From: Mustelus asterias
Taxonomy: Eukaryota
Direction of reading: 5' to 3'
Assembly: GCF_964213995.1 (NCBI RefSeq)
Contig: NC_135811.1
Span: 51,274,001 to 51,338,000, forward strand
Length of the DNA: 64,000 nt
Part shown: piece after piece, positions 13,367 to 56,265 of the stretch
How the letters are laid out: every line of letters begins with the position of its first letter
Position numbering within the stretch: position 1 is the first letter of the stretch
The notes under the pieces: model-generated
What the model was told of the DNA's origin: nothing
Seen by the model: only the letters and a program-made list of their open reading frames with translations
The model's database searches: none
Program-made: the position numbers and the translations under genes

Positions 13367-14012
13367 CTGGTTGCCACATTATCGGAAGGATGTGATTGCA
13401 CTGGAGAGGGTGCAGAGGAGATTCACCGGGATGCTGCCTGGGATGGAATATTTAAGTTATGAAGAGAAGTTGGATAGACTTGACTTGAGCTCTGACGAAG
13501 GGTCATCTAAACTCGAAATGTTGCCTCTATTCTCTCTCCACAGATGCTGTCGGACCTGCTGAGATTTTACAGCATTTTCTGTTTTGTTTCAGATTCCAGC
13601 ATCCACAGTATTTTGCTTTTATCTTGGGTCGACTTGGTTTGTTTTCTGTGCAGCAGGGAAAACTGAGGAGCAACCTGATTGAGGTGTACAAGATTATGAG
13701 GAGCATGAACAGGGTGGATAGGGAACAGCTGTTCCTCTAAGCTGAAGGGTCAGTCAGAAGAGGATACAAGTTCAAGGTGAGGGCCAGAAGGTTTAGGGAG
13801 GATGTGAGGAAAAACCTTTTTATCAGAGGATGGTGGTTGTTTGGAGAGGCGGGTTGCCTCACATCCTTTAAAAAGTATCTTGGCATGTCATAACATTCAG
13901 GGCTATGGGCCAAGTGCTGGTAAATGGGATTAGATGGATAGGTTAGGTGTTTATCACATGTCAGTGCAGACTGAATGGGCTGAAGGGCCTCTTCAGCACT
14001 GTATGGTTCTGT
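13367..14012 (+). mobile_element. CR1 3' fragment
   Basis: WLPHYRKDVIALERVQRRFTGMLPG; tail at about 13975-14012. Confidence 0.85.
13487..13623 (+). mobile_element. Solo pLTR of a second Penelope family with hammerhead motif, inserted in a CR1
   Basis: GAGCT-CTGACGA-A-GGGT(CATCTAA)ACTC-GAAA-TG-TT-GCCTC followed by cagatgctg...gacctgctgagatttt.cagcattttct; interrupts CR1 sequence that resumes at about 13630. Confidence 0.8.
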
Positions 14013-14020
14013 GATGAAAA

Positions 14021-14629
14021 CAGTAAGAAGTCTAACAACGCCAGGTTAAAGTCCAACAGGTTTATTTGGTAGCAAACGCCACTAGCTTTCGGAGTGCTGC
14101 TCCTTCGTCAGGTGGAGTGAGAGATCTGCTCACAAACAGGGCATACAGAGACACAAACTCAATTTACAGAATAATGATTCTGTTCTGAATGCGAGTCTTT
14201 ACAGCCAATCAAGTCTTAAAGGTACAGACAATGTGAGTGGAGAGAGCATTAAGCACAGGTTAAAGAGATGTGTGTTGTCTCCAGACAGGACAGCTAGTGA
14301 GATTTTGCAAGTCCAGGCAAATTGTGGGGGTTACAGATAGTGTGACATGAACCCAAGATCCCGGTTGAGGCCGTCCTCATGTGTGCGGAACCTGGCTATC
14401 AGTTTCTGCTCAGCGACTCTGCGTTGTCATGTGTCGTGAAGGCTGCCTTGGAGAACGCTTACCCGAAGATCAGAGGCCGAATGCCCATGACCGCTGAAGT
14501 GCTCCCTAACAGGAAGCACGCTCCGAAAGTTAGTGGTGTTTGCTACCAAATAAACCTATTGGACTTTAACCTGGTGTTGTCAGACTTCTTACTGTGTTTA
14601 CCCCAGTCCAATGCCGGCATCTCCACATC
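14021..14629 (-). mobile_element. Truncated Penelope copy (end of GIY-YIG region + pLTR) with inverted pLTR at the other end
   Basis: 14021-14515 resembles 15014-15500. 14521-14594 is the reverse complement of 14021-14094 and continues with a ~35-nt tail (tgtttaccccagtccaatgccggcatctccacatc). Confidence 0.9.
14079..14115 (-). ncRNA. Minimal hammerhead ribozyme (PLE)
   Basis: Minus strand reads CCAC-CUGACGA-A-GGAG(CAGCA)CUCC-GAAA-GC-UA-GUGG, with intact core and stems I and II. Confidence 0.8.
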
Positions 14630-15013
14630 TGTGATGAAACACATGGACCAGACTTTTCAGGGTCAATGACGATGGGTGGAATAAACACCTTGGCCAGGAT
14701 TCTCCCAAAAAATTCTAAGTTCCCAGTTTGTGTGAAAATGGGAGTAACTGCTGCTGGTTTTTTTAGCGGGATTTTCAGATTGAACCACCCACACTCTGTG
14801 CATCACAGACTGCCCTAAAGAGATTCCCTCTGAAAATCAGTGGGCAGGGCCTATTCCCACTCAATCCTCTGGTCCAAAAGAAGAAACATGAGAAACTATG
14901 GACCAGATTTCCTGTTTTGGATTGGGGCTCCCATGTTGAGGTCAAACATGAGTCGCCACGCCACACTATGTTGGTCATCCCACATTGATTTGGCCCTGGT
15001 TGGCCAATTAATG

Positions 15014-17225
15014 TAAGAAGTTTAACAACACCAGGTAAAGTCCAACAGGTTTATTTGGTAGCAAAAGCCACACAAGCTTTCGGAGCTCCAAGCCCCTTCT
15101 TCAGGTGAGTGGGAATTCTGTTCACAAACAGGGCATATAAAGACACAGACTCGATTTACATGAATAATGGTTGGAATGCGAATACTTACAACTAATCAAG
15201 TCTTTTAGATACAAATAACGTGAGTGGAGAGAGCATCAAGACAGGCTAAAAAGATGTGTATTGTCTCCAGACATGACAGCCAGTGAAACTCTGCAGATCC
15301 AGACAAGCTGTGGGGGTTACAAATAGTGTGACATGAACCCAATATCCCGGTTGAGGCCATCCTCGTGTGTGCGGAACTTGGCTATTAGTTTCTGCTCAGC
15401 GACTCTGCGCTGTCGTGTGTCGTGAAGGCCGCCTTGGAGAACGCTTACCCGAATATCAGACGCCGAATGCCCGTGACCGCTGAAGTGCTCCCCAACAGGA
15501 AGAGAACAGTCTTGCCTGGTGATTGTCGAGCGGTGTTCATTCATCCGTTGTCGCAGCGTCTGCATAGTTTCCCCAATGTAACATGCCTCGGGACATCCTT
15601 TCCTGCAGCGTATCAGGTAGACAACATTGGCCGAGTTGCAAGAGTATGTACCGTGTACCTGGTGGATGGTGTTCTCACGTGAGACGATGGCATCTGTGTC
15701 AATGATCCAGCACGTCTTGCAGAGGTTGCTGTGGCAGGGTTATGTGGTGTCATGGTCACTGTTCTCCTGAAGGCTGGGTAGTTTGCTGCGGACAATGGTC
15801 TGTTTGAGGTTGTGCGGTTGTTTGAAGGCAAGAAGTGGGGGTGTGGGGATGGCCTTGGTGAGATGTTCGTCTTCATCAATGACATGTTGAAGGCTCCAGA
15901 GGAGATGCCGTAGCTTCTCCGCTCCGGGGAAGCACTGGATGACGAAGGGTACTCTGTCCACTGTGTCCCGTGTTTGTCTTCTGAGGAGGTCGGTGCGGTT
16001 TTTCACTGTGGCGCGTTGGAACTGTTGATCAATGAATCGAGCGCTATATCCTGTTCTTATGAGGGCATCTTTCAGCGTCTGGAGGTGTCTGTTGCGATCC
16101 TCCTCATCCGAGCAGATCCTGTGTATACGGAGGGCTTGTCCGTAGGGGATGGCTTCTTTAATGTGTTTAGGGTGGAAGCTGGAGAAGTGGAGCATCGTGA
16201 GGTTATCCGTGGGCTTGCGGTACAGTGAGGTGCTGAGGTGACCGTCCTTAATGGAGATGCGTGTGTCCAAGAATGCAACCGATTCCGGAGAGCAGTCCAT
16301 GGTGCGTCTGATGGTGGGATGGAACTTGTTGATGTCATCATAGAGTTGTTTCAGTGATTGTTCTCCATGAGCCCAAAGGAAGAAAATGTCATCGATGTAT
16401 CTAGTGTATAGCATCGGTTGAAGGTCCTGTGCGGTGAAGAAGTCTTGTTCGAACCTGTGCATGAAGATGTTGGCATATTGAGGTGCGAATTTGGTCCCCA
16501 TGGCTGTTCCGTGTGTCTGGATGAAGAACTGGTTGTTGAAGGTGAAGATATTGTGGTCCAGGATGAAGCGGATGAGATGTAAAATTGCATCAGGAAACTG
16601 GCAGTTGTTGGCGCTGAGCACTGAGGCCGTTGCAGCAATGCCATCATCATGGGGGATGCTGGTGTAGAGTGCCGAGACATCCATTGTGACGAGGAGTGCT
16701 CCTGGTTCAACTGTTCCATGTGTGCCGAGTTTCTGTAGGAAGTCCGTCGTGTCGCGACAAAAGCTGGGGGTTCTTTGTACAATGGGTTTCAGGATGCCCT
16801 CGACATAGCTGGAGAGGTTCTCGCACAGGGCCCCATTGCCCAATACGATGGAACGGCCGGGTGTGCTTGCCTTGTGTATCTTCAGGAGACAGTAGAGATC
16901 TCCAACGCGGGGAGTACGTGGGATGAGAGCACGGAGGGTGCTCTGAAGGTCCGGATCAAAGGTCTTGATCAGAGTGTTGAGTTGACGAGTGTGTTCTTTG
17001 GTCGGATCTGTGGGTAACTGTCTGTAGTGTTCCTCGTTGTTTAGTTGTCGGTACACTTCTTTGCAGTAATCCGTTCTGTTCAATATGACGATGGCCCCTC
17101 CTTTGTCTGCTGGTTTGATGACACTGTTGCGGTTGGTCTTGAGAGCGTGGATGGCGTTGCATTGTGCTTGGATGATGTTCGGGGCTGTCTTGTGAGTGTG
17201 GCTGATGAATTTGGTGTTGACGCAC
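15014..17225 (-). mobile_element. Penelope-like retroelement, 5'-truncated: RT + GIY-YIG ORF with one in-frame stop, plus 3' pseudo-LTR
   Basis: ORF 15740..17260 has PLE RT motifs (KPADKGGAIV, MDVSALYTSIP, GTAMG, RYIDD). A TAA at about 15740 is followed in frame by VVYLIRC...YIGET...RMNEH (GIY-YIG), ending at 15317. Flanked by a 10-bp TSD CCAATTAATG (15004-15013 and 17226-17235). Confidence 0.95.
15068..15112 (-). ncRNA. Minimal type I hammerhead ribozyme in the Penelope pseudo-LTR
   Basis: Minus strand reads CAC-CUGAAGA-A-GGGGCU(UGG)AGCUCC-GAAA-GC-UU-GUG: conserved core, 6-bp stem II, palindromic AAGCUU in place of stem III, stem I CAC/GUG. Confidence 0.8.
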
Positions 17226-18309
17226 CCAATTAATGGCCAGAGGGTGTGCTCACTGTCCAATTAAGGCAGTTGAAGAGCCAATTGGAGGTCTTGTAGCAGT
17301 GAAGGGGTTGCAGCCTGCCATGGCGGGTAAGGGAGAGAGAGGTGGCGCCATCTTGAGGCACCCTCTCAGCATTTTGAAAATATACAAAATAAAAATGGCC
17401 ACAGCTGTCAGACCAGCACTGAGGAGAGGTCCTCTGCAATTACCTGGGACACTGGTCTCCCGGTCTGCTGCTGCCGCCCCCCCCTCCCCCCCGCACCCCG
17501 CACCACCATCAACCTCTGAAAGTTTTCGCTGGAGAAGCAAATGTTGTACAAAGGTCTGTGTAGATCATACTTTCTTTCCTGCTCACTTTCCAGCTCCCAC
17601 TAATGTCCAGCTCCCACTAATGACATGTAATGTGCTGCACTCAGCACACCGGCCTTCAGTTTGCGATGAGATGCCCTGTTTCGCTGCTCAGTAATTGCTC
17701 TCTCAAAAATTACAAGAGATCAAAGTTTCACGAAAATGCGAATCAAGTCAGCCTTTTCATTATTGTTCTCATCCATTGAGGCACCTGTCTTCCCTCACGC
17801 TATTACCTGCCAGTTATATTCCCAGTCCCAGGATAGTTGAGTAGATTAGACTTGTCTTTTCAGTGAAAGGTGCAGTATTGGTTCACTGGAAAAGGAAAAC
17901 ATTTTTTTTTAGTCCTACTGCAAAAAAAGATTTCAACAATTTGAAGATGTGCTTGGTTCTGTTTGACTGGTTGCTATTGGCAGCCTAAAAATAATAGATT
18001 ATAATAAGCATTAGTTGAGAACAGCCAATCTAGAGTTAAGGAAAGCAGCCGTTGCTGACAGTACTTTTAAGTTATTAAGTTTGCAATTACACTTTCAATC
18101 TTGTGATGTACCTTGATATGGAAGCTACCTCACCAGCCAGGTGCCGGTGTGATCTCCAAGTCTACAATGTGAAATTCTCCTCAATTATCCCAAAGGTTTT
18201 TAACACTCGGATGACACAGAGAGTCCGATTGTGATTTCCAACCATTAGAGATTAGCCACCAAGGGGGCGGAGTTCAGCAAATACATTCAAGTGTGCATAT
18301 GTACAGATA

Positions 18310-18437
18310 GGTCGGAATTTTACCGCCATGCCTCACCTCGGATTGGGGATGGGCATGGCTCACAGAACAGAATTCTCCATTGGCCTCAGGCGGGATTTTA
18401 CGAGCCTCGACCGAGCGAGGTTGTAAAATATCGGCAC
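18310..18437. mobile_element. Small Harbinger-type MITE, same family as 1671-1794
   Basis: Shared tctccatt..cctc.gcggga.ttt and cgagcgagg motifs; flanks ATA/TTA. Confidence 0.65.
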
Positions 18438-18562
18438 TTATGTCGATAACCTCCATTTGATCCACAGTGAGCAAGGTAACCAGTCAACTGTCACACACCA
18501 CTGTCCAAAGTTACCAATCTCCATTTGCTGTATAACAGCAGTCTAAGAACTTCAGTTAGTAT

Positions 18563-19591
18563 TGTTATGGTCAGAAAGGGGGGGGTTAATTTAAACAGCA
18601 ATAAGTTCTCCTCTCGCCACCCAGTAAGGTCTTTTGATTTGTTTCCCTCTTTATGAACAGTGACGTATTTCCCAACCCCTCGCTTTTAGTGCCATTCACT
18701 TTTCTATTAGTAATCCACAGCAGACTCGAGATAGGATGAGCTCAAAGGGTTAGTTTATTTGCATGCACTCAGAACACACGGTGGGTTGCAAAGTCACTCA
18801 GTAAAGAGAGGGATAGTGAAAAGAAGGATTTACAGTGCAGAGATCACAGAGAAAATAAATCTGGGTTCACGTGGGGTCCAGAGTCCAGAATCAAAGTCCA
18901 GTGAGGCATTCCTTCTAGGAGGTTGGCGGGCTGAAAACGATGCTGTATCATTCACTTTTCCAGTGGCATTGAAGTCACACGATGAGATAAGCACGCAGAA
19001 ATGATCAGTCTTGAGGGTAATGGTGCAGAATTTCCAGAAGAAGCAGTGTAGATAGGATCAGGACCCCAAAGGTGAACCAGAGCATTTGTCTGTGAAGCTG
19101 CTGGTCAGATGATAAAAAGCAGACCGAGACTTTATAATACAGCAAGGCAATATTACTGGTTCCATAAGCCAGAGGCCCTTGTCACATGGCATCCACTTCC
19201 CCACAATGTCTTTGATAAAGAATGTGCATCCCTCATATGTCGTCCCCAAGATTGTTAAATGTCCCAAACACTAAGAATTGAAAGGAAGGTTGTGGGACCC
19301 TTTGTCTCAGCAGATGAACAACCTCTTGTTGGCTAACCTAGGTTATGAAATACAGATAGCCTTGTATTGATCTTTTTGAATTTGGTCTGTGTAGCCCAGA
19401 GATGGGGTCGGGAGTTGGGGGGGGTGTTATTAGTAACTCTTCAAGGATAACGATGTGTGAGTTTCCTTTTGTTCAGACAGACATAGATTCAACCATTTTA
19501 TCTCTTTGTCCAGTTTGAAATTTTTGGAGATAACAATGATACTACCTTGATATATTTTATTTTTTAAAAATACAGGTCTTAGTTCTTTACA
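18563..19591. mobile_element. Possible solo LTR
   Basis: TGTTA...TTACA termini with 4-bp flanks GTAT/GTGT; no internal coding evidence. Confidence 0.35.
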
Positions 19592-19699
19592 GTGTGCACA
19601 TAGAAATTGAACATGATCAACTAGAAATGATTGTGGACTATATTAGTCAAGAACATTTAATACATAGCAAGGCAATGGACATCCGGTTGGGAGTTGATC

Positions 19700-19912
19700 G
19701 AAGGGTGAATTGTAAAGCATTGGCCAAGGGAACTTTTTGTTCTTGAAATGGTGCCACGGGATCTTTTACACCCACCTGAGCAGCAGCCCAGTCTCGATTC
19801 ATCAGCTCACTTGAAAGATGGCAGGTCTAATAATGCAGCACCTCTTCAATGCTTTACTGAAGTGGCAGCCTGGATTATATGTTTCTGTCTGCAGTAAGGC
19901 CTTGAACTCATG
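19700..19912 (-). mobile_element. Old Deu-domain SINE fragment
   Basis: gtgccacgggatcttttacacccacctgag...ttgaaagatggcag...aatgcagcac is the reverse complement of Deu-SINE-like sequence. Confidence 0.6.
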
Positions 19913-20463
19913 ATCTAATCCTGGAAAATAATAAAAAGAGAAACATTCAGATTTAAAAGTGTGATTTTCATACACCTTATACAGGGAATGAATACGTTAC
20001 ACGCCGCTTTTAGATTATTCTCTGCTGAGGGGCAAATAATTGAGAAGCTTTGAAACATCGGTTGAGAAAGCAATGTAATGTTGAAGCACGGTCATTAAAA
20101 TCTGATACATTCTCCTCTGCTTTATTGAAATTGGATATATATCTGAGAGCGGAGAATTTACACGGCTGTAGAGAAAGGGCTAGGAAATGAGACGGAATTA
20201 CATTGTCCTTTCAAAGATGTGGCACAGGCAGATTACCCTGTGCTGTAAGGTTCTTTGATATTCTATTGTTTGAAATGTTTGTGGTATTGAAGGGACTAGT
20301 GTAATTGCAGTCAGAATGTTTGAATTTATTTATTTTTCAAACAACTGGAAATGCGAGAGCTGCAGCTATAATTTGTTGCAGCTTGGGATGTGCTCAAAGC
20401 CTCCACTTGTGGCTTTGTGAAACACTGCACCACTCCATACCTTTGAATGGGGTAAAGACATCA

Positions 20464-21110
20464 GGGGCGATATTCCGACCTTGCTGCGCCCGCACAGATA
20501 GCGCTACTCCCGGAAAATAGCGTCCGGGCCTACAAATCGGTTCCGCGCCTGGCGCCAAATGGTTTGTAGTCGTTCCCAGTCCCTTTCTAATGGCGCAAAC
20601 CAGATCACACCCAAAAAGAACGTGGGGCCGATTAGCATATTTAAAGCAGCATTTAAATAGGCATAGCCCGTTTGATGCTGGATTCTCCGGGCTGTCGGGA
20701 CCTTCCGACCTTTGGGCCCAGCCCAAACTGGCAAGAATCACTACTGTTCTCCATTAGCAGCGATGGCCATGCCGGGGCGGGGGGGGGGGGGGGGGGCGGG
20801 GGGAAGCTCAGGGACAATTAAAGCCCCCGGGTGGTCAGGGATATGGCAGTGTCTACCTGGCACCCAGCAGTGCCCACCTGGCACCCTGGCAGTGCCAGTT
20901 GGGCCTGAGTTGGGGGCTATGATGGGGGAGCTATTCCGTAGGGATTGTGCGGGGTGGGGGGGAGGAAGGTTGTGCAAGGAGAGTCATGAAGGGGGGGTTG
21001 TGCAGGGGGATTGTGCAGGAGTGGAGCATAATGAGGAATGGGGCATGCCGGGGTACCCATTGGGAAGGCCCCAATCGTCTGATGCCAGCAATTAGTGTCG
21101 GGAAGGGGGT
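20464..21110. mobile_element. GC/CpG-rich probable Harbinger-like non-autonomous element with G-runs
   Basis: Abrupt CpG-rich start GGGGCGATATTCC; G-run at 20779-20803; right end not identified. Confidence 0.45.
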
Positions 21111-21835: not shown

Positions 21836-22029
21836 TGGCAGCATGCAAAAGTCAAGGAAATGATAAAATGTGTTTAGTTTTATATTATTGAATCATTTAA
21901 AAAACTAACAGAGGTAACCCAGGTACCAAATACATAATTAGGAATGAGCGTTTTAAACAGTGGAAGATGGGAAAATAGCAGCAAGATCTATATGATGTTC
22001 CCGGCTTGTGTTGTCAGGTCAAAGTCGGG

Positions 22030-22735
22030 TGCGAATTATACAGTAAATGGCAGAACCTTTAGCAGCATTGACATGCAGAGGGATCTGGGTGTGCAGGTTC
22101 ACGGATCCCTGAAAGTGGCAGCACAGGCGGATAAGGTGGTCAAGAAGGCATGCAGCATGCTTGTTTTCATCGGCCAGGGCACCGAGTATAAAAGTTGGCA
22201 AGTTATGTTACAGCTGTATAAAACTTTAGTTAGGCCACAATTTGGAATATTGTGTGCAGTTCTGGTCACCACACTATCAGAAGGACGTGAATGTTTTGGA
22301 GAGGGTGCAAAGAAGGTTTACCAGGATGTTGCCGAGTCTGGAGGGTTTTAGGTATGAGAAGAGGTTGGATAAACTCGGTTTGTTTTCACTGGAAAGATGG
22401 AGGCTGAGGGTGACCTGATAGAAGTCTACAAAATTAAGAGAGGCATAGGTAGGGTGGAGAGTCAGAGGCTTTTATCCTGGGTCGAAGGGTCGACTACAAG
22501 ACAGCACAAGTTTAAGGTGAGAAGTGGTAAGTATAGGGGAGACGTGTGGGGAAAGAGGGTGGTGGGTACCTGGAATGCACTGCCAGTGGAGGTGGTGGAA
22601 GCAGGCATGTTGACAACATTCAAGGTGTATCTTGACAGATGCATGAACAGAAGGCGAACAGAGGGATAGAAACTGTTTTTCTGCACAGGCTTGGTGGGCC
22701 AAAGGGCCTGTTCCTGTGCTGTATTGTTCTTCGTT
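22030..22735 (+). mobile_element. CR1 3' fragment
   Basis: QRDLGVQVHGSLKVA...QLYKTLVRP; GDLIEVYKI; CR1 tail. Confidence 0.88.
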
Positions 22736-22889
22736 TATTGAGTGTCAGCAGTTCTTGTCTCTGGGAATGTTTGTGATTCACAAAGCCTTTGGAGTTCTGC
22801 TTTAGAAAATCTGTACCTGCAGTTCCACTTTGCTCTTGCTGATTAAGAGCCATAAACTCCCAAAGAGGTTAAATTATGTGTGCCTCGAT

Positions 22890-26750: not shown

Positions 26751-27265
26751 GGGTGACATGGTGGCACAATAGTTAGCACTGCTGCCTCACAGCACCAGGG
26801 GCCCAAGTTCGATTCCCGGCTTGGGTCACTGTCATTGCAGAGTCTGCACGTTCTCCCCATGTCTGCGTGGATTTCCTCTGGATGATCCAGTTTACTCCCA
26901 CAGTCTTGATGTGGAGTTGCCGACGTTGGACTGGGGTAGGCACAGTAAGTAGTCTCACAACACCAGGTTAAAGTCCAACAGGTTTATTTGGTAGCACAAG
27001 CTTTCGGAGTGTTGCCCACTCACCTGATGAAGGGGCAGTGCTCCGAAAGCTCATGCTACCAAATAAACCTGTTGGACTTTAACCTGGCGTTGTGAGACTA
27101 CTCACTGTGCCTCCCACAGTCTGAAAGACGTGCTGGTTAGGTGCATTGGCCATACTAAATTCTCCCTCAGTGTACCCGAACAGGCGCTGGAGTGTGGCGA
27201 CTAGGGGATTTTCACAGTAATTTCATTGCAGTATTAATGTAAACCTACTTGGAACACTAATAAAA
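26751..27265 (+). mobile_element. Alternative-tail V-SINE, host of a PLE mini-element
   Basis: Head at 26751; tail ...aaacctacttggaacactaataaaac. Confidence 0.85.
26907..27110. mobile_element. Palindromic Penelope pLTR mini-element inserted in a V-SINE
   Basis: Inverted pLTR arms; hammerhead core CTGATGA-A-GGGGC(AGT)GCTCC-GAAA at 27024-27048 on +; 12-bp TSD CTCCCACAGTCT (26895-26906 and 27111-27122). Confidence 0.9.
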
Positions 27266-28846: not shown

Positions 28847-28851
28847 AAAAC

Positions 28852-29299: not shown

Positions 29300-29990
29300 G
29301 GAGAAAAGTGACAAGACAAGTTTTAGGTACATAGTGAATGTGTGCAGAACCATGGTTGCTGAAGGTTCTGCCACTAACACTTGCCCTGTAGACTCAGTAG
29401 AGCAGAAGATATGAGTTCGGATACAGGGCTGGAGGGAGTTGCATAAGCCAGTTTATAAATGAGAAAAAAGATTTAGAAATAATTAGACTAGTGGTTGGAG
29501 AGTTAGTGCAGGGGAGAGCAATGAAAAGAGCATTAATGGGTGACCGAGTTTTGATATGGACTGTGATGTGGCGGGTGAAGTTCTGGGTGAATTGCTTTCG
29601 CTTGGTTGGCTTTTGGAACGATCAGGTCTGATGATGGCAATAGGTGAGTGTTCCAGTGACGAGTGAGGTGAGATTAAGATCGAAGTGGATAATATTCTGG
29701 AAGCAAAATATGTAATCTTGATAATGGGTTGGAAGTGGATGTTGAAAATCAGCTTAGGTTTGGGAAGGACACTGAGGCTGTGCCCCATTGAGCAGAGACT
29801 GAGCAAAGCAATGGAACTGAGTGACAATTTCTGACGTGAGTTGGCAAAGTTGGCTTCAGTCTTGCTAGTGTTTAGTTGGAACAACGTCTGGTCCGTACAT
29901 AACAGTCCAATAGTAGAGCAACAGTTGTAGAATAGAGGATAGAGACAGGAGAATGAAGCTGAGCTTCACTATAGCAATGCAGAAGCTGGA
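29300..29990 (-). mobile_element. Ancient L2-like LINE fragment
   Basis: FQLNTSKTEA...KITYF..RILS resembles post-RT L2 sequence; highly decayed. Confidence 0.5.
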
Positions 29991-30004
29991 CACATACCAC
30001 TGTA

Positions 30005-30985
30005 CATGCCCCAGCTATTTACAATCTATATTAATGACTTGGATACAGGGATAGAAGGCTCTATAGCCAAATTTGCAGATGACACAAAAATAGGCAGGAC
30101 AGTAAGTTGCAATGAGGAAAGAAGAACCTTACAAATAGATATAGATAGGTTAGGAGAGTGGGCCATAATGTGGCAGATGGAGTTTAACGTGGATAAGTGT
30201 GAGGCCATGCATTTTGGTCGCAAAAATGGGAAGGCGACTTATTATCTAAATGGGGAGAGACTTTGGGGCGCTCCAATGCAGAGGGATCTGGGTGTCCTCA
30301 TTCATGAGTCACAGAAAACTAGTATGCAGGTACAGCAGATAATAAAGAAAGCGAATGGAATGTTGGCATTTATAGCTAAAGGAATAGAATATAAAGGTAA
30401 GGAAGTATTGTTGCAATTACACACGGCATTGGTGAGGCCGCACCTGGGGTATTGTGCACAGTTTTGGTCCCCGTATTTGAGGAAAGATGTAGTGGCATTG
30501 GAGGCAGTTCAGAGGAGGTTCACTAGATTGATTCCAGAGATGAGGGATTTGTCGTATGAAGAAAGATTGAACAGTTTAGGCCGATACTCTCTGGAATTTA
30601 GAAGGATGAGGGGAGATCAAATTGAGGTATTCAAGATGATAAAAGGTATGGATAAAGTAGACGTGGAGCGGATGCTTCTGCTGGTGGGGCATTCTAGGAC
30701 GAGAGGTCATAGTCTTAGGATAAGGAGTACCAAATTTAAAGCAGAGGGAGGAGAAACTACTTCTCCCAAAGGGTTGTGAATCTGTGGAATTCGCTACCCC
30801 AAAGTGCGGTGGATGTTGGGACAGTGAGTAAATTTAAGGAGGAGTTAGACAGATTTTTAATTGGTAATGGGTTGAAGGGTTATGGGGGGAAGGTAGGAAA
30901 ATGAGGATGAGGAGCATATCAGCCATGATCGAATGGCGGAGTGGGCTCAATGGGCCAAATGGCCTAATTCTGCTCCTGTCTTAAA
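30005..30985 (+). mobile_element. CR1 RT-to-3' fragment
   Basis: PQLFTIYINDLD...KFADDTK...WQMEFNVDKC...RPHLGYCAQFWSP. Confidence 0.93.
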
Positions 30986-34065: not shown

Positions 34066-34260
34066 ACAGTAAGAAGTCTCACAACATCAGATTAAAGTCC
34101 AACAGGTTTATTTGGAATCATGAGCTTTCGGAGCGCTGCTCCTTCAGGTGAATGAAGGAGCAGTGCGCCAAAAGCTCGTGATTCCAAATAAACCCGTTGG
34201 ACCTGGTGCTGTGAGACTTCTTACTGTGCCCACCCCAGTCCAACGCCGGCATCTCTACAC
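34066..34260. mobile_element. Palindromic Penelope pLTR mini-element
   Basis: Same pLTR sequence (agtaagaagtctcacaac...gtccaacaggtttatttgg) in inverted arrangement, with the tail on the right arm; TGTTTTGAT occurs on both flanks. Confidence 0.88.
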
Positions 34261-36229
34261 CTTTGTTTTGATGGGATGGCCACCAATTTTAATAGTCATT
34301 AACTCTCTAGACAGGGTCTTGGCCTCTTGTGCTCCGAGACATTAAGCCATCACTGCCTCAGTAATGGTGTCTGGTGCACCCATTTCTGTATTCTGAATGA
34401 CTGAACCTTGGTGTAAAGCCACCGTGCTCTCCCTGCAGTGGGATCTCCAGCTAAATCCCACTGTTATTATCATCCCCATTGTACTATACTGCCCTTGCCC
34501 TCCAGTGTACTCCTGGGAATGTAGTTACAACCAAAATCACAACATCATGCTACCTCAGCTGACCTGTGGCTCAGAAGTCTTTAGCTTAAATGCAGCTTCC
34601 AGTGTGGGCTGGCTAGCCTTCACCTGGAGGTGTGCTTTGTGCCCTGTTATCATTGTTGTGGGTCTTAAATGGGTTGTGCATAGTCTGCATTTATAGATAA
34701 AGCTGGAGGCAAGGCTGTTGGTAAACTTTACCCTGTATTGATCATTATATCAGTAGGTACAGTGCATGCTTAACATTAGACTCTACATAGCATTATCTCG
34801 CAACACACTGTTGTCATGTGATCTTAAATCACTGATGACATAGACTCAATATTTACATATTTAACATTAGTTCTTTATAGCACAGGGGCAATCTCCAAAT
34901 CCTGCTCAAGGTTTCCAACGGGGGCCTCTAACTATTGGTTTTGTTCCTTTCTTTGCTGGGCCCTCAGCGCTGGTACAGTTACGGTGCTCACCTGTAGATG
35001 TTTCAATGTACTTTAAGATCAGTCCATTTGTCCACCGGTCCCTGGCGTTCTAAAGTCCACTGTTCCTTTGCTTTGGTATACCGTTTGTTTAACTTCTCCT
35101 TCTCTTCCTGGAGCTTTTCCTCTCTCAGGTCTCCACGCTGTGTGCACATTTAGGCTGTGTACTGCAATAGATGTTTATTCTAAAATGGAAACTTGCCCAG
35201 GTCAGTCTGTATTTGAACTCAATCAACTGCTTTTTTGTATGAGTCACCCTCTGGTCTCATGAGACCAAGTCATTAGCAAGATTCTCAAACTGCGTGTCCC
35301 TGGCACATAAAACAAGAATTATCCATACTCAGCCCTCAACTACTTCACTACTCTCCCGGAGATGGGCGGCCATGTGCCCTAGAATTGATTCCACCAATAG
35401 TGAACAATAATATTTTAATAATCAACCATCAAGACAACCTAGTTGCATTGTTGGAATTTGGGGTATCAGACATTTTATTCCTCTTTTCCCATGTTCTGAA
35501 ATCATTCAAAAGTGATAGCCTTTATTAGTGACAGTGATTATATTTTATTCCATATCCGCTTGACCTGCCGCATGTTAATGTCTGGACAGCAATGTTAAAA
35601 TGCAGCAGCATTACCAAGTGTCACCTCCACATTATCACTGACTGGTCACACCAGTCAATGCAATGTGTAGATGTGGTCCCTCCTCCATCCCTGTTCTCCT
35701 TTGAGTGATAGTTTGCCAGATAGACCCAAACCTCCTTGACCCCAATAACTCTCTCCCCGGTCCAGGGAATTCTTCTTTTACATACTTCCCTTTCACAACA
35801 GAGTCTACGAGGACCCATTTATCCCATTTGCAACCTGCTTTGTCTTGGACAACCTAATTACACAAGATGGTATTGAAATATCCGTGCCTGGCACAAACCA
35901 AGTCAATCCCTTGACACCTTTGTCTTCCCACGCTCTGGCACCTATCTGCCCATCAACATTCCAAGCATCTGACCAAATGCTGACTTTGGCATCCAGCTTA
36001 TTTTGTCTTGGCCTAGACATATCTGAGCCTTTGGGAAGTGCACATCTCTCAGATCCCACACAGCAATCTGTCTGTTTTCACACTCGCCTGGTCTACTGCT
36101 GAAGTTCGCTTCTTTTTGACCGATGGATCTTTCTTAAACACTTAGGGCCCTTAAAACGTTCAGCCAATGAAGACACAAGCCACATTTTCTCATCAAATCA
36201 CCTCTCAACTGTTTTTCCTCAGTGTCACA

Positions 36230-37451: not shown

Positions 37452-38965
37452 AGGCGATGGCCTAGTGGTATTATCGCCAGATTATTCATCCAGAAACTCA
37501 GCTAATGTTCTGGGGACCCGGGTTCGAATCCACGGCAGATGGTGGAATTTGAATTCAATACAAAATATCTGGAATTAAGAATCTACTGATGACTATGAAA
37601 CCACTGTTGATTGTGAGAAAAACCCATCTGGTTCACTAATGTCCTTTAGGGAAGGAAATCTACCGTCCTTACTTCAGTAAGGCCTTTGACAAGGTCCCTC
37701 ATGGCAGACTGGTGCAGAAGGTGAAGTCGCATGAGATCATGGTCTGACCTTGCTGGCAAAGTGGTTACAGAACTGGCTCAGTCTTAGAAGACAGAGGGTA
37801 TCAGTGGAAGGGTGCATTTCTGAATGGAGGGCTGTGACAAGTGCGTTCCTCAGGGATCAGTGCCGGGACCTTTGCTCTTTGTAATATATATAAATGTTTG
37901 GAGGAAAAAATAACTGGTTTGATTAGTAAGTTTGCGGACGACACAAAGGTTGGTGGATTTGCGGATAGCGATGAGGACCATCAGAGGATACCGCAGGATG
38001 TAGGTCGGTTGGAGACTTGGGCGGAGAGATGGCAGATGGAGTTTAATCCGGACAAATGTGAGGTAATGCATTTTGGAAGGTCTAATACAGATAGGAAATA
38101 TACAGTAAATGGCAGAACCCTTAAGAGCATTGATAGGCAGAGGGATCTGAGTGTACAGGTACACAGGTCACTGAAAGTGGCAATGCAGGTGGAGAAAGTA
38201 GTCAAAAAGACATATGGCATGCTTGCCTTCATCGGCTGGGGCATTGAGTTTAAAAATTGGCAAATCATGTTGCAGCTTTATAGAACGTTAGTTAGGCCGC
38301 ACTTGGAATATAGTGTTCAATTCTGGTCGCCACACTACCAGAAGGATGTGGAGGCTTTGGAGAGGGTACAGAAAAAATTTACCAGGATGTTGCCTGGTAT
38401 GGAAAGCAGGAGCTATGAGGAGGGGTTGGAGAAACTTGGTTTGTTCTCACTAGAACGACAGAGGTTGAGGGGTGACCTGATAGAAGTCTACAAGATATAT
38501 GAGGAGCATAGACAGAGTGGATAGTCAGAAGCTTTTTCCCAGAGTGGAAGAGTCAATTACTAGGGGGCGTATGTTTAAGGTATGAAGGGCAAGGTTTAAA
38601 GATGTACGAGGCACGTTTTTTACACAGAGAGTGGTGGGTGCCTGGAACTCGTTGCCGGGGGAGGTAGTGGAAGCGGATACGGTAGTGACTTTTAAGGGGC
38701 GTCTTGACAGATACATGAATAGGATGGGAATAAAGGGATATGGTCCCCAGAAGGGTAGGGGGTTTTAGTTCAGTCGGGCAGCATGGTCAGTGCCAGCTTG
38801 GAGGGCCAAAGGGCCTGTTCCTGTGCTGTAATTTTCTTTGTTCTTTGTTCTTTGATCTGGCTCACATGTGACTCCAGAACCACAGCAAAGTGGTTGACTC
38901 TCAACTGCCCTCCAATGGCAATAAATGCCGGCCAGCCATCGATGCCCATGTCCCATGAATGAACA
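37452..38965 (+). mobile_element. tRNA-derived SINE with L2-type (TGAA) tail, split by a CR1
   Basis: Head GGCGATGGCCTAGTGG...GGGTTCGAATCC; resumes at about 38857; ends cccatgtcccatgaatgaa. Confidence 0.82.
37673..38853 (+). mobile_element. CR1 RT-to-3' fragment
   Basis: SKFADDTKVGG...RPHLEYSVQFWSPHY; (TTCTTTG)n tail. Confidence 0.93.
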
Positions 38966-41917: not shown

Positions 41918-42459
<542 letters not shown>

Positions 42460-48225: not shown

Positions 48226-48913
48226 CCCTATCTTAGGGATACAAATTCACTTCACTGATGCATGGTGAAAGGCTCTATTACTGTTTTAGGAACATTCCAA
48301 GCATTAATGTTGCAAACTTTGTTACCTGGGATTGAAAATGAACAGTGCTTCTTTTTGTTTTTAATTCCTTCCTGGTGTTTGGGTGTCACTGGCTAGGTCA
48401 GTATTTTTGTTGCCCGTCCTTAGAATCCCTTGAGAAAGTGGTGGTGAGCCACCACCCTCAACCACTGCCATGAGGTTACGTGGGGTTCATACTCAATATT
48501 GAGGACTTCCAGGGCAACTCGCTCCCGACTGTATTCCACTGTGCTCTCATCTCTGGTGGGTCCGTCCAGCTGGTGGAACAGGGCATCTCCAGGGATAGTG
48601 ATGGTGCTGCCTGGAAATATTGGCTGAAAGATATGATTTGATGAGTATGACGATATCAGGCTGTTGCTTAACTAGTCTGTGGGACATCTCTTCCAATTTT
48701 CGCACAAGTTCCCGATGTTAGTGAAGAGGACTTTGCATGGTTGATAGGACAGGATATATTTTTGTCATTTCGGTGCCTGAGTTGATGTCTGTGGTTTATC
48801 CATTTTGTAAGATAGTATATATTCTTATTTGGTTTTTCGGTACCAATATGATACAAGTGAGTGACTTACAAGGGCATTTCAAAGTCCATCACATTGCTGT
48901 GGGCCTCATAGAT

Positions 48914-49557
48914 TCATAGAAATCATAGAAACCCTACAGTACAGAAAGAGGCCATTCGGCCCATCGAGTCTGCACTAACCACAATCCCACCCAGGCCCTA
49001 CCCCCATATCCCTACATATTTTACCCGCTAATCCCTCTAATCTACGCATCCCAGGACACTAAGGGGCAATTTTAGCATGGCCATTCAACCTAACCCGCAC
49101 ATCTTTGGACTGTGGGAGGAAACCGGAGCACCCGGAGGAAACCCACGCAGACACGAGGAGAATGTGCAAACTCCACACAGACAGTGACCCGAGCCGGGAT
49201 TCGAACCCAGGTCCCTGGAGCTGTGAAGCAGCAGTGCTAACCACTGTGCTACCGTGCCGCCCCTTCATAGAAGAGAATCCCTACAGTACAGAAGAAGGCC
49301 TTTCGGCCCATCGAGCCTGCACCGACAACAATTCCACCCAGGCCCTATCCCTGTAACCACACATAACCTAACACTTAAGGGCCAATCAACCTAACCCACA
49401 CATCTTTGGACTGTGCGCAGAAACCGGAGCCCCCCGAGGAAACCCATGCAGACATGGGGAGAACATGCAAAAACTATACAGCCACCCCATGCCGGAATTA
49501 AACCCAGGTCCCTGCCCCTGTGAGGCAGCTGTGCTAACCACTGCGCCAATGTGCCAC
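48914..49557 (-). mobile_element. Two tandem V-SINEs (48914-49262 and 49266-49557)
   Basis: Reverse complement of the consensus, twice. Confidence 0.88.
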
Positions 49558-50309
49558 CTGGAGTCACATGTAGGCCAGACCGAGTAAGGACAGTAGATTT
49601 CCTTCCCTTAAGGACATTACTGAACCAGATCAATTTTTATGACAATCCGGTAGTTTCGTGGTCACTGGTACTGAGAGTAATTTTTCAATCCAGACTCATT
49701 AATAAATTAAAGTTCTCCCTGTTGTTTTGATGGGATTTGAACTCTCATCTCCAGAACATTTGTCCAGGCCTCTGGAATGTTCACCCAGTTATATTTACCA
49801 TTGTGCTACCATTTATAACATGCCTGTCTACCAGGCTGTTCATTGACTTGCCGAATTTTGGGTATCCCTGGGTCGATTTGCTGAGTTCCCTCCTCTGATG
49901 AAGTGTTTTTGCCTGAAGGTGTTGCCTGTGAGACAGGCACCTCGCCCTTATCAACAACTGGGACAATATACCTATCACCATCTCATTTAGAAGCTGGGAC
50001 TATTGATGCTGCACTGCCTTACCCGACAAGGTTGCAGTTAACTTGATTAGAGTTTCAGTACAATAGAAATAGGTTAGAATACTCTTGATCGTACTAGGCA
50101 GAAATAACACTGAATTTTACCCTGATCTTAACCATAGAAACTTGCATCAAAATTTCCCGACAATCTTCTCAACAAATGTCCAGAAGATTAAAAACAAAAC
50201 TTAAAAGGCTGGAAATCCATGAACACAACGGGGGGTGCGAGAGAGTGGAACTTTTGCCATTCTCCTTCTTTAAGTTGCTCTTTATCTTGTCGATATTTGA
50301 AAAAAATTG

Positions 50310-50860
50310 TGAAGCCACTGAACCACCATTAATCTACAAGATGCACTGCAGCAAATCACCAAGGATCCTTAGGCAGCACCTTCCAACACACAACCACTTC
50401 CATCGAGAAGGACGAGGGCTGCGGATGCACAGGAACAAGATGTCCAAAGATGTGCGGGTTAGGTGGATTGGCCATGCCTAATTACCCCTTAGTGGAGACT
50501 AGCTAGTGTAAATGCATGGGGTTATGGGGATAGGGCCTAGGTGAGACTGTGGTCGCTGCAGATTCGATGGGCGGAATGGCATCCTTCTGCATTGTAGGAT
50601 TCTATGATTCTAACACCACTACTTGCAGGTTCCCCTCCAAGCCACTCACCATCCTGACTTGGAAATATATTGCCGTTCCTTCACAGTCGCTGGGCCAAAA
50701 TCCTGGAATTCCCCCCCCTTAACGGCATTGTGGGTCAACCCACAGCACGTGGACTGCAGCGATTCAAGAAGGCAGCTCACCACCACCTTCTCAAGGGCAA
50801 CTAGGGATGGGCAATAAATGCTGGCCAGACAGCGACACCCATGTCCCATGAATGAATGAA
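50310..50860 (+). mobile_element. 3' end of an L2-like LINE (probable partner of the TGAA-tail SINE), with a V-SINE tail nested at about 50440-50611
   Basis: IYKMHCSKSPRILRQHLP...KSWNS..DSRRQLTTTFSR; ends with the same aagggcaactagggatgggcaataaatg...tgaatgaatgaa as the SINE. Confidence 0.75.
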
Positions 50861-51208
50861 AAATAGTACTCGACTAGCATAGGATATTTAGGAAAATATT
50901 AAATTGATCAGCTGTCCTCCTTTTTAGTGCATTAGATTCTGATGCGATTTAAACAAAACATTTGAAATGACAGTAAACTCCCAGACCATGCAAGTCTCGG
51001 TCAGAATTGAAACAAAAACTGAAAAGGTCATTACAGAACACAAGAAAAAGTGCTTTATGTCCTGCTGCATTTCGAAATTTAAGCCTCAGATAGAACTTCG
51101 ATACTTGTAAGACATTTAGGTTCTCTGTGTTTTTGTTTGGCGTTGGGGGAGCCATGTTTACCAGGCTGATTCCTGGGATGGCAGGTCTGTCATATGAAGA
51201 GAGACTGA

Positions 51209-52482
51209 GGGCCTGATTTCACCAAAACTTCCAGGCGTAAAATCGCGGTAAAGTTGGGCGTCGGGCCTATACCATGATCTGCACCCGATTCCGAGCAGAT
51301 CGCGGCTTTACCGACACCCGATTCGGGCGCAGGTCCGGCACTTGCTCGAATTGGGTGGCCTGACGATTTAAATGCATTCGCATGCATTTAAATTGACTTA
51401 ATGAACCGCGCGCCCAACTCTACCGCCAAATCCCACTTTACCGTCTTCTGGCCCGATCCGCGTCGCACTGTTACCGACCTGCAAAACAAAAGTCTGAAGT
51501 CACCGCCGCAGCTTCCGAAGAGCGGGGTCAGAAACTGCAATGGCTCTCTGACCCAGGCCATCCTCTGGTCGGGGTGGGAGGAGGAGAGGGGGTGTGACGT
51601 CTCATCCTCTGGGGGTGGGGGTGGGAGGGGAGGGGGTATGACATCTCATCCTCTGGGGGGGGGCCGGGGGGGGTGGGAGGGGAGGGGGTATGACTGATCA
51701 TCCCCTGCGGGGGGGGGGGGGGGGGGGGGGGGTTGGAGGAGAGGTGGTGTGACGTCTCATCCTCTGATCGGGGGCTTCCACTGCCTGTCTGCAGCCGATC
51801 CCTCCTGGTACCATCACTGGTTCACTACCAGCCACAGATTACTCTTCCCTGCAGGTGTGAGAGAGTGGGAGAGATGGCTGTGGCTGGCAGTGTACCAGTG
51901 ATGGTGCCAGGAGGGATCGGCTGCAGACAGGCAGCGGAACCCCCCCAACCAGAGGATGAAACATCACACCCCCTCTCCACCCCCTCTCCTCCCCCCCCAG
52001 GGGATGATCGGTCACACCCCCTCCGCTCCCAACCCCCCCAGAGGATGAGACATCACACCCCCTCTCCTTCCGCACCCCCCCCGCAAGGGATGATCGGTCA
52101 CACCCCCTCCGCTCCCAACCCCCCCAGAGGATGAGACATCACACCCCCTCTCCTTCCGCTCCCCCCCACCCCCCCCCCCCCCCCACCGCAAGGGATGATC
52201 GGTTACACCCCCTCCCCCGACCAGAGCATGAACGTCAGAGAGTCGCTCTCTCCACTTTCTGCTTATTCTTTCGCGCCTGGATGCGCGCTGTCAGATTTTT
52301 TTCGAACTGCGCATGCACAGTTCAGAGCTCCGATCGGTCCGCCAGCACTAAGCCCCGGCCACGGCGCGGATCGGGCCGGAGCCGGCAAAACACGTATGGG
52401 TGTGCTGGAAAGAGGATTCCAGGCACGGATCTATTTGACGCCCAGATCCAGCACTTAGACTCAAAATGGTAAAATTCCCCCC
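51209..52482. mobile_element. 1.27-kb CpG-rich non-autonomous Harbinger-like element with internal fold-back minisatellite
   Basis: Splits CR1 (gagac-TGA | TAA-gtcggttagg); imperfect TIRs GGGCCTGATTTCACCA / TGGTAAAATTCCCCCC. Confidence 0.75.
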
Positions 52483-52726
52483 TAAGTCGGTTAGGATTGT
52501 ATCCACTGGAGTTTAGAAGAGTGAGAGGGGATCTCATAGAAACTTATAAAATTCTAACAGGGTTAGACAGGGTAGATTCAGAAAGAATGTTCCCGATAGT
52601 GGGGGGTCCAGAACTAGGGGGTCATAGTTTGAGGTCTGAGGTAAGGAGACATTTTTTCACCCAGAGAGTGGTGAGTGTGTGGAATTCACTACCACAAAAC
52701 GTTGTGTGATTTCAAGAAGAAATTAT

Positions 52727-53062
52727 TCGGAAAAGCAGCCAGCATAATTAAGGACCCCACACACTTTGGACATACTTTCTTCCACCTTCTTCCATTGGGA
52801 AAAAAATACAAAAGTCTGAGGTCACGTACCAACCAACTCTAGAACAGCTTCTTCCCTGCTGAAGCTACTGTCAGACTTTTGAATGTACTTACCTCGCATT
52901 AAGTTGATCTTTCTCTACACCCCAGCTATGACTGTAACACTACATTCTGCACTATCTCCTTTCCTTCTCTATGAACAATATTCATTGTCTGTACAGTGCA
53001 CAAGAAACAATACTTTTCACTGTATACTAATAAATGTGACAATGATAAATCAAATCAACTCA
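52727..53062 (+). mobile_element. Rex1/Babar LINE 3' end
   Basis: Same family as 6858-7405; tail tgtgacaatgataaatcaaatcaa. Confidence 0.85.
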
Positions 53063-53134
53063 AAAAGATATAGCTCTTGGGGCTAAAGGGATCAAGGGAT
53101 ATGGGGGCAAAGCGGGATCAGGATTTTAAAAAAG

Positions 53135-53475
53135 TTATTAATGGGATGTGAGCGTCGCTGGCTGGGCCAGCACTTTTTCCCAAACCTAACTGTCCTCCGT
53201 TTCAGAGGGTATTTAACTGCATTGCTGTGGGTCTGGAGTCACATGTAGGCCAGACCGGGTAAGGATGCCAGATTTCTTTTCCCGAAGGGCATTAATGAAA
53301 CAAATGGGTTTTTACAAGAATTGACAATGGTTTCATGGTTGTCGTTGGACTTTTAATTCCAGATTTTTTATTGAATTCAAATTTCACATCTGCCGTGGTG
53401 AGATCTGAACCCAGATCGTGCCCTGGATCTCTGGATTATTGGTCCAGTAACAATACCACTACGCCACTGCCTTCC
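53135..53475 (-). mobile_element. L2-tail SINE
   Basis: Reverse complement of the 46197 family. Confidence 0.78.
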
Positions 53476-54660
53476 CATTTGATGAATGGCAGAGCAGGCG
53501 CGAAGGGCCAAATGGCCTACTCCTGCTTCTATTTTCTATGTTCCTATGAATAAGCTAAGTGGGATTTTGCTGAGTCTAACTGTGCAACACCACAACTGAT
53601 CTCTGAAATTCGTGCATGTTGATTTTCTTTGACTTACGACTGGTAGTAATTAGTTATTAACAGACTGTCTCAGGGGAGAAAAATGTGTACCCTGTTTGCC
53701 CTTACATTTCAGTTATGCAGAAACTTGCCAGGAATCTATAACCCTTTGTAAAATTTGTACATGGATGCTGCACAAATCTTTGGATTTTAAGTTTTGTTTC
53801 TGGATCCCAAATAACCAAATGAGTCAGTAAAGGAGAAAACTAGAAAATATATTTATAAACTAATATATATATAAGGATAAAAACATGATTTGGAATGTGA
53901 TGTTCCAGTGGAAATTATTGTTAGTTCTTTTGCTGGGACACAGTAGGCTATGATGTGAACAACACTACATCATTAATGTTGCTATGTAAAGGAACATCAT
54001 TCCATTCTTAGAAAAGGTTATTGTGCTCTATTAATAAATGATTGAATATTAGATTATGCACTCTTCAGGTCTTAATCTGAAGGACCCAGATTCATGCTTG
54101 ACGAGCAGAGGTGTAGTGGGGGAGAATTGCCAGTTTCCCATGTCGGGCTCGAAATTGTCAGTTATGGTGACTTATCAAAGTCAGGACACGTGCCATCAGC
54201 GACAGTCAGCCTGAAGATGTACCAGCAAGAAGTTCCGTGCCACTTTGGTGCCTGGGAAAGGCCAGAAAGCTGATTTTTGCTCCCTAGGGAAGAGATGTTT
54301 GCCCACATTGGATCCATTGTGGGATCGATCATCATTGCCTCCGATGTTTGGGAGGATTTTTAATGGAACTCACGCCAGCAGTTAGCTTGTGAGGGTGCAG
54401 ATGAGCTTTTGCAATGACATAAAAAACTGTTGTCCCCAGGATGAATTGGAAACTTTACAGAAATTTTACTCTGAACAAAGACCGGCCTTCTTTTGATACC
54501 TCCAGATGGAGGAGGAGGCAGTGGTGTAGTGGTATTGCCAGTGGGTTAGTAATCCAGAGACCCAGGGTAATGCTCTGGGGACCCGGGTTCGAATACCATT
54601 ACGGCATATGATGCGATTTCATAAAAATCTGGAAAATAAAAGACTAATGATGACTAATGA

Positions 54661-56039
54661 TTTCACCATCAGTAGTGGGGAAAATCCTCAAATCTATTAT
54701 CAAGAACTTTATAACGGAGCATTTAGAAAGCAGTGGCAGGATCAGACAGAGTCAGCATGGATTTAAGTAGGGGAAATCATGCTTGACAAATCTGTTGGAA
54801 TTCTTCGAAGATGTAACCAGTAGAGTTGACAAGGGGAAACCAGTTGATGTAGTATATTTGGACATTCAGAAAGCGTTTGACAAAGTCCCGCACAAGAGAT
54901 TATCATTCAAGATGAAAGCACATGGGATTGGGGGAAGTGGATAGAAAACTGGTTAGCAGAGAGGAAACAAAGAGTAGGAATTAATGGATGCTTTTCAAAT
55001 TGGCAGGCAGTGACTAGTGGGGTGCCACAGGGATCGGTGCTGGGACCCCAGCTATTCACAATATATATTAATAATTTGGATGAGGGAATAAAATGTAACA
55101 TCTCAAAGTTTGCAGATGATACCATGTTGGGTGGGAGGGTGAACTGTGACAAGGATGCAGACATCCTTCTGAATGATCTGGAAAAGTTGGGTGAGTGGGT
55201 TAATCAATGGTAGATGCAGTATACTTTGGATAAATGTGAGGTTATTCACTTTGGAAGCAAAAACAAGGCAGCAGATTACTACCTAGATGGCTGTAAATTG
55301 GAAGAGGGGAGTGTGCAGCGGGATCTAGGTGTCCTTGTGCACCAGTCACTGAAGGTAAGCATGCAGGTGCAGCAGCAGTAAAGAAGGCAAATGGTATGTT
55401 GGCCTTCATTGCGAGAGGTTTTGAGTATAGGAGCAGGGATGCGTTGTTGTAATTATACAGGACCTTGGTGAGGCCACACCTAGAGTATTGTGTGCAGTTT
55501 TGGTCTCCTTTCTGAGGAAGGATGTTCTTGCTCTCGAGGGAGTGCAGCGAAGGTTTACCAGGCTGATTCCGGGGATGGCGGGACTGATGTATGAGGAGAG
55601 ATTGACTAGGTTAGGATTGTTTTTGTTGGAGTTCAGATGAATAAAGGGGGGAATCTCATAGAGACTTATAAAATTCTAACTGGACTAGACAGGGTAGATG
55701 CAGGGAGGATGTTCCCGATGGTGGGGGAGGCCAGAATCAATGGTCACAGTCTGAGGATTCAGGGTAGACAATTTAGGACAGAGTTGAGGAGACATTTCTT
55801 CACCCAATGACTGGTGAGTCTGTGGAATTAATTACCACAGGAAGTAGTTGATGCCAAACCATTGAATGTATTCAAGAGGCGGCTGGATATAGCACTTGGG
55901 GTGAATGGGATCAAAGGTTATGGGGAGAAAGCAGGATTAGGCTATTGACTTGGATGATCAGCCATGATCGTGATGACTGGTGGAGCAGGCTCGAAGGGTC
56001 AAATGGCCTCCTCCTGCTCCCATCTTCTATGTTTCTATG
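54661..56039 (+). mobile_element. CR1 RT-to-3' fragment
   Basis: [23 protein letters not shown]...KFADDT; tail TTCTATGTTTCTATG. Confidence 0.92.
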
Positions 56040-56127
56040 AAACCATTGTAGATAGTTGGAAAAACCCATCTGATTCAGTAATGTGAAGGAAATCTGCCAT
56101 CCTTACCTGGTCTGGCCGACATGTGAT

Positions 56128-56265
56128 GATGTGGAGATGCCGGCGTTGGACTGGGGTAAACACAGTAAGAAGTTTAACAACACCAGGTTAAAGTCCAACA
56201 GGTTTGTTTGGTAGCAAAAGCCACACAAGCTTTTGGAGCTTCAAGCCCCTTCTTCAGGTGAGTGG
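56128..56265 (-). mobile_element. Solo Penelope pLTR inserted in a SINE
   Basis: Closely matches 15014-15112 plus the tail; TSD-like ACATGTGATG on both sides; hammerhead GAAA decayed to AAAA. Confidence 0.88.

Follow-up and report, generated by a model that had tools for sequence, protein, structure and literature searches.

Minimal type-I hammerhead ribozymes are known from metazoan Penelope-like elements (PLEs), where they combine a type-I core with an unpaired base between positions 9 and 10.1, a G10.1-C11.1 pair, a palindromic 15.2-16.2 stretch and a short stem I, and lie mostly as single motifs in truncated copies or as pairs on opposite strands, separated by 100-700 bp (Cervera and De la Pena, 2014, PMC4209133). 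PLEs of the Neptune/Nematis type, which belong to the endonuclease-bearing (EN+) elements, have one open reading frame (ORF) for reverse transcriptase (RT) and a GIY-YIG endonuclease, marked by a CX2-5CxxC linker; their pseudo-long terminal repeats (pLTRs) contain a TATA box and an initiator-like motif, and their copies form partial tandems with an inverted, 5′-truncated copy, a one-sided tail of 30-40 bp and a target-site duplication (TSD) of 8-12 bp, the standard layout of PLEs (PMC8557442, PMC3846280). For Poseidon PAc of Anolis, to which the present system can be likened, it has been established that two internal RT starts bound the tail, that both target strands are nicked and extended, and that uncut RNA is the main template in vitro (Frangieh, 2024, PMC11167929). 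Animal non-LTR retrozymes, reported in one chondrichthyan genome among others, are non-coding, pLTR-derived sequences with a type-I hammerhead (Li, Clavereau and Pollet, 2026, 10.64898/2026.07.22.740005). The ways in which tandem and inverted PLE ends are formed and the role of the hammerheads are stated as open questions in the PLE papers. A stretch of 64,000 nucleotides from the shark Mustelus asterias (assembly GCF_964213995.1, contig NC_135811.1, positions 51,274,001 to 51,338,000; hereafter the window) has seven ribozyme-bearing insertions, here called A to G. These are quite probably 3′-end copies of two coding, hammerhead-bearing PLE families, the short ones being likely dead-end products of integration rather than separate mobile elements.

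All seven insertions, placed by an earlier note on this DNA, were found again, and all lie in intron sequence of the cGMP-dependent protein kinase 1 gene. Self-comparison of the window revealed one terminal repeat common to B, C, D, E and G (family 1) and another common to A and F (family 2), with single or inverted arms only and no head-to-tail tandem units of a non-LTR retrozyme; retrozymes, in contrast, consist of units repeated head to tail, every one of which has its hammerhead (10.64898/2026.07.22.740005). Insertion C (15014..17225, minus strand) is a 2212-bp, 5′-truncated, tail-less family-1 PLE with a 10-bp TSD, encoding RT and GIY-YIG endonuclease in a single frame that is interrupted by a stop. 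The RT part (15740..17225, minus; PF00078) ends at an in-frame TAA (15742-15740) between the two domains, and a CX3CxxC linker and the endonuclease (15317..15739, minus; PF01541) continue in the same frame, with a complete minimal hammerhead at 15064..15112 (minus; predicted cut after 15074). This insertion makes up 71% of the 3097-bp family-1 unit; the initial 769 bp of the ORF are missing from it, as is the 5′ pLTR. Its earlier description as near-intact was overstated, because it covers unit positions 770 onward only, and it carries the stop besides. In insertion B (14020..14629, minus; 610 bp, 12-bp TSD), about 500 bp of the family-1 3′ end (endonuclease C-terminus, untranslated region and complete hammerhead at 14111-14073) is followed by an inverted, tail-bearing pLTR piece (about 14520-14629) with its 5′ start inside stem II; the size of 140-220 bp formerly given for the short insertions does not hold for this one.

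Three insertions, assigned to neither strand, are long fold-backs, a feature missing from the earlier note. Insertion D (26907..27110, 204 bp, family 1, 12-bp TSD) has its tail on the left arm and its hammerhead on the right arm (sense on the plus strand), where the motif at 27024 keeps the core and stem II and has the first stem I pair broken. Insertion E (34066..34261, 196 bp, family 1, 9-bp TSD) bears its tail on the right arm, and its cores have decayed, with a 3-nt deletion in the core. In insertion F (41918..42135, 218 bp, family 2, 8-bp shared flank word) the left arm is tail-bearing, and the right arm (sense on the plus strand), which begins with the first stem I base, holds a complete hammerhead with a U3:A8 core pair at 42035-42083. 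The remaining two are single arms. Insertion A (13488..13622, plus; 135 bp, family 2, older C3:G8 subfamily) extends from the first base of stem I to the tail and is flanked by a shared word of 6 bp only; its motif at 13492 has an intact core, with the second stem I pair broken and a mismatch in stem II. Insertion G (56129..56266, minus; 138 bp, family 1, with tail and a 10-bp TSD) starts 8 nt before the core and has G12 changed to A.

For both families, coding sequence with matching 3′ ends was found, and therefore both sets of short inserts have coding parents. In the 3.68-Gb assembly, 22,329 candidates for the family-1 RT were recovered, and many of the 115 scored have an open frame of 913 codons, which was held by all 20 loci fetched for it. 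Family 1 is the young one of the two, and its unit, defined from tandem copies, has intact ORFs whose product, counted from the ATG, is 893 aa long; this ATG is also where the tail ends, about 100 nt after the hammerhead cut, whereas in Poseidon PAc, a member of the Poseidon clade, the ORF starts inside the hammerhead (PMC11167929). In the youngest family-1 branch, represented by L158:5500-5620 among other intact copies, the ORF end contains some 60 bp of inserted sequence that alter the last residues and are absent from insertion C. Family 2 was traced from insertion F, seven of whose 29 other copies reach upstream into shared sequence encoding an endonuclease C-terminus. This piece has 14,521 candidates in the genome, and most of the eight long copies fetched end in the hammerhead and tail of A and F, the best of them having a 732-aa RT and GIY-YIG frame. 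No intact full-length ORF was found among 150 scored of these candidates (8 fetched), and the long copies are 85-91% alike and therefore older. The proteins of the two families are 34% identical. In both, RT precedes GIY-YIG in a single ORF, as in C-terminal EN+ PLEs, and a CX2-5CxxC linker before GIY-YIG and a CCHH motif are present; the GIY-YIG match is above the cut-off in C and below it in L203, where the motif is visible by alignment. The pLTR is recognized by partial tandems, an inverted 5′-truncated copy, a one-sided tail of 30-40 bp and a TSD. Judged by sequence, both families are RT and GIY-YIG PLEs of the Neptune/Nematis type, the linker being its mark (PMC8557442), and the view that PLE machinery inserted the seven copies is borne out. 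Unlike in the published accounts of that type (PMC8557442, PMC3846280), the whole insertion here is often only 100-220 bp long, and 5′ ends accumulate at one position.

The high copy number suspected earlier is real. A 30-nt word of the family-1 repeat occurs exactly 54,936 times in the genome, and a random sample of 129 loci of 10 kb (1.29 Mb) contained 130 family-1 arms, of which 50 stand singly and the others make up 40 inverted pairs; this corresponds to 70 insertions per Mb and, if extrapolated, to about 257,000 genome-wide. A strict descriptor of the motif (core, stem II of at least 4 bp, GAAA-NN-UH, stem I of at least 3 bp) gave three matches in the window, in B (14111 minus), C (15104 minus) and F (42043 plus), and none in any of 100 shuffles; all seven sites do carry a minimal hammerhead or part of one, as had been claimed, but only these three have it in full. 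Beyond the window, this descriptor gave 62 matches in the 1.29 Mb of random genome against none in 3 shuffles. The resulting 48 intact motifs per Mb is a far higher density than that of coelacanth and Xenopus, with 4,000-9,000 per genome, in a study whose abstract, results, discussion and supplement file 2 name no cartilaginous fish and which left 5′ ends unmapped (PMC4209133). In an Rfam scan of the window, taken to E 1, hammerhead families were absent and the sole matches were microRNAs that fitted hairpins by chance.

The motifs are minimal type-I hammerheads in PLE pLTRs of two families, as the earlier note had it, with a conserved core, an extra base after A9 (A in 61 of the 62 descriptor matches), G10.1-C11.1 and a palindromic remnant of stem III. 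The four stem II variants it quoted are correct; the family-2 palindrome is ACGU and not AGCU. Within family 1, the core is invariant save N7 and H17 (31 motifs), and C-G is replaced by U-A at two pairs of stem I (13 cells); the 95% pairing in this set is circular, because 28 of the 31 rows came from descriptor matches. Across subfamilies, 14 cells with two-sided change against 2.4 in shuffles were counted at three pairs, in rows that had for the most part been selected for pairing and share ancestry; the two-sided changes therefore amount to a few lineage events. They lie in stem I and, for family 2, in the 3:8 core pair, and within a family stem II mostly varies on one side (A-U to G-U). Conservation of structure is thus seen as compensatory change across subfamilies. 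The family-2 core pair is C3:G8 in older copies such as A and U3:A8 in younger ones such as F; among 15 unbiased copies, eight have U:A, three C:G, two U:G and two C:C, and in the oldest branch one stem I pair is additionally shifted to U-A. Insertion F was considered as a dead core and this was rejected, since its UUGACAA is the U3:A8 variant of 8,062 exact copies genome-wide. Monomer folding energies are mostly within those of shuffles (z -0.7 to 0.4; F -2.8), with stems I and II predicted in B, C and the parents. For D and F, folding gave a single hairpin per fold-back (z -19 and -24), and their RNA would form one long hairpin burying the hammerhead; cofolding did not yield an active dimer, this modelling being uninformative on dimer cleavage. 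The ribozyme traits, including the U3-A8 swap known from S. mansoni, are all already described in PMC4209133.

The short inserts had been taken for families of mini-elements. The shared ends of the coding parents, the range of sizes, the differing seams and the position of the TATA box speak against this. Family-1 5′ ends form a continuum that begins 65 nt after the core, extends beyond 120 nt before it and goes on to kilobases; among 34 short family-1 fold-backs only one breakpoint pair recurs, and the seam letters differ. The fixed ends and shared internal seam of a mini-element family were not found in family 1; in family 2 the 5′ end is fixed and an AGCT seam recurs, both of which are expected from independent formation too. 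In the 57 inverted pairs examined, the tail is on exactly one arm in 52 and on both in none, and a duplicated word of 11-15 nt is present at 40, a few of the others being probably chance neighbours; 35 of the 50 single family-1 arms are tail-less. The two arms end within 4 nt of each other in 18 of the 34 short fold-backs, against 3.3 expected by permutation. Continuous sizes, TSDs, the one-sided tail and the unshared family-1 seams mean that these inserts are best read as truncated and fold-back products of the parents, and their layout is the published PLE layout at its shortest.

The 5′ ends of the short copies gather at the front edge of the ribozyme. Among 186 unbiased family-1 arms (three cut by locus edges being dropped), 21 have their start 9-3 nt before the core, where 4.9 were expected (p 7e-8), the excess coming from older branches (18 vs 3.1 expected). 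For family 2, 17 of 46 arms, one of which (the left arm of F) was misplaced by the aligner, start at -6 to -2. Exact family-2 copies number 9,454 reaching -3 and 8,062 reaching -4, and the templated base is present at -5 in 3,390 and at -6 in 3,122; 58% of the 8,062 are lost at one step, against 15% and 8% at neighbouring steps. The short inserts exclude a TATA box situated 30 nt upstream of their common 5′ end: its first T lies 30 nt before the sharp-end base in 18 of 20 TATA-bearing rows (of 42) for family 2, and 30 nt before position -5 in 28 of 35 TATA-bearing upstream sequences (of 62) for family 1. The sharp family-2 end is probably the start of the parent RNA, as this spacing suggests. 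Family-1 subfamilies without a TATA box are represented by L113, L121, L237, L258 and insertion B of the window, and among their short copies there are some with a start a little further upstream (-9 to -16). An origin of the family-2 end from a splice acceptor (polypyrimidine tract and AG) was rejected because the large drop lies 5′ of the AG and the preceding letters differ among copies. A stem-I snap-back seam in family 2 was also rejected, as 120 of 1,264 G-preceded copies have it, about the level of base composition.

These ends can be accommodated by a route in which the pLTR promoter would start RNA on the first base of hammerhead stem I and the RT-endonuclease would make staggered nicks about 10-13 bp apart. 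Reverse transcription would be initiated internally on the RNA, at either of two sites separated by about 38 nt, the distance of the tail, and copying from the 5′ pLTR would run off the RNA 5′ end after 100-140 nt, leaving a stub, like a strong-stop product, in which the ribozyme is complete and uncut. If the two nicks both serve, one per start site on the same RNA, the cDNAs would be joined 5′ end to 5′ end, and such head-to-head joining would produce a fold-back with one tail. The ribozyme would be under selection in the parent lineages and not in the stubs, which are predicted to be neither mobile nor catalytic, since they leave the TATA box behind and the fold-back hairpins bury the hammerhead. 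In a further reading, put forward tentatively and with rather less than even confidence, PLE integration passes through a strong-stop cDNA of the retroviral kind, which extends from the tail start as far as an RNA 5′ end that coincides with the first hammerhead base, and a dimeric enzyme uses two fixed starts to copy a single RNA onto the two nicked strands. Several observations weigh against the account of the seven insertions as a whole. The family-1 hot-spot window was chosen after the histogram had been seen, the front-edge excess is not significant in the young family-1 branch (3 vs 1.8 expected), and 27 of the 62 family-1 upstream sequences are TATA-less. No cap-G excess was found before the sharp family-2 end (G 1,264, C 1,459, A 1,949), where untemplated T is oddly rare (268, counting T not followed by a templated T). 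The first four bases of family 2 are palindromic (AGCT), so that microhomology may sharpen the end, and a perfect AGCT seam recurs in three pairs among the first 100 places listed, and in L231. The agreement of arm ends is inflated by the selection of short pairs and by palindromic seams. Lastly, the promoter of D. virilis Penelope is internal and TATA-less, and hence the promoter type is not general.

Dead-end stubs could also arise with a different origin of the fold-backs, namely snap-back self-priming of one cDNA at a short palindrome, the pile-up then reflecting RNA structure or microhomology and not an RNA start. Seams are often on short palindromes, junction palindromes have been interpreted as traces of self-priming (Arkhipova, 2013, PMC3846280), snap-back also predicts the agreement of arm ends, and the missing cap-G excess is in its favour. 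Snap-back of the commoner tail-less cDNA, however, should yield tail-less pairs, at odds with the one-tail rule; pausing of RT would be expected at the 3′ foot of a structure and not past its 5′ edge; the TATA spacing is 30 nt in both families; and the single arms A and G share the end. This explanation is considered unlikely. Still less probable is a SINE- or MITE-like (short interspersed or miniature inverted-repeat element-like) origin, in which non-autonomous families are transcribed and re-inserted as units of 140-220 bp by PLE RT in trans. It would account for the fixed 5′ end in more than half of the family-2 copies, for the recurring perfect AGCT seam and for the excess of short over long copies (in 69 of 130 family-1 arms the start is at most 16 nt from the core, or later), and pLTRs alone can mobilize sequence in trans (PMC3846280). 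It is difficult to reconcile with the continuous sizes and unshared seams of family 1 and with the upstream position of the TATA box; every stem variant of the short inserts also occurs in long copies, and a re-copied hairpin would lose the strict one-tail rule.

That the stub ends come mainly from hammerhead self-cleavage, so that the insertions record ribozyme processing, is very improbable. Arms starting at the predicted cut number three in pooled family 1 (2.0 expected), none of 96 in its older branches and, for family 2, two of 46; in the window, all insertions but one have at least one arm that extends across the cut, and most stubs contain an uncut ribozyme. The young family-1 branch has three of 53 arms at the cut against 0.68 expected (p 0.03, post hoc), two of them from one insertion, and this excess is a weak post hoc hint. 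The insertion concerned, L063:5903-6069, is a young fold-back with both arms starting at the predicted cut and a TSD of 12-14 bp. Self-cleavage can be a minor route only.

Hammerheads and this insert layout in PLEs have been published, and the two families, which have landed many times as short copies, add two members to the hammerhead-bearing EN+ PLEs, a known kind of system; the stubs are not a new ribozyme system and, as a catalogue entry, are ordinary. No account of these shark-like families or of the start-site pile-up was found in the open literature; Dfam and Repbase, which lay outside that search, may already name the families. With intact, near-identical coding copies and very many insertion footprints, the start site, two-start priming and cleavage are directly testable here. 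If the strong-stop route is true, hundreds of thousands of stubs are a base-resolution fossil record of the start site and the two RT starts of a PLE, and those of one young branch also record ribozyme cleavage in vivo.

Other features of the window are minor. Non-LTR retrotransposon RT fragments, presumably CR1-like, lie at 21938-22351, 29943-30779, 37838-38524, 58183-59561 and 60844-61779 (PF00078 in the two tested), and insertion A appears to sit inside a fragment of this presumed kind. The target of insertion D (26760-27240) is a common short repeat that we take to resemble a tRNA-derived SINE. An open frame at 7016-7423 matching the PF09004 (ALKBH8_N) profile, on the minus strand, is probably the 3′ end of another retroelement. 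A long imperfect hairpin at 51787-51934, which gave a chance Rfam microRNA match and lies beside a GC-rich tandem repeat (about 51950-52200), belongs to neither PLE family by self-comparison. An exon of the host gene PRKG1 is located at 42223..42390 (plus; E 2.6e-31), and its splice acceptor is some 90 bp downstream of insertion F; the pre-mRNA would thus carry a 90-bp hairpin next to this exon.

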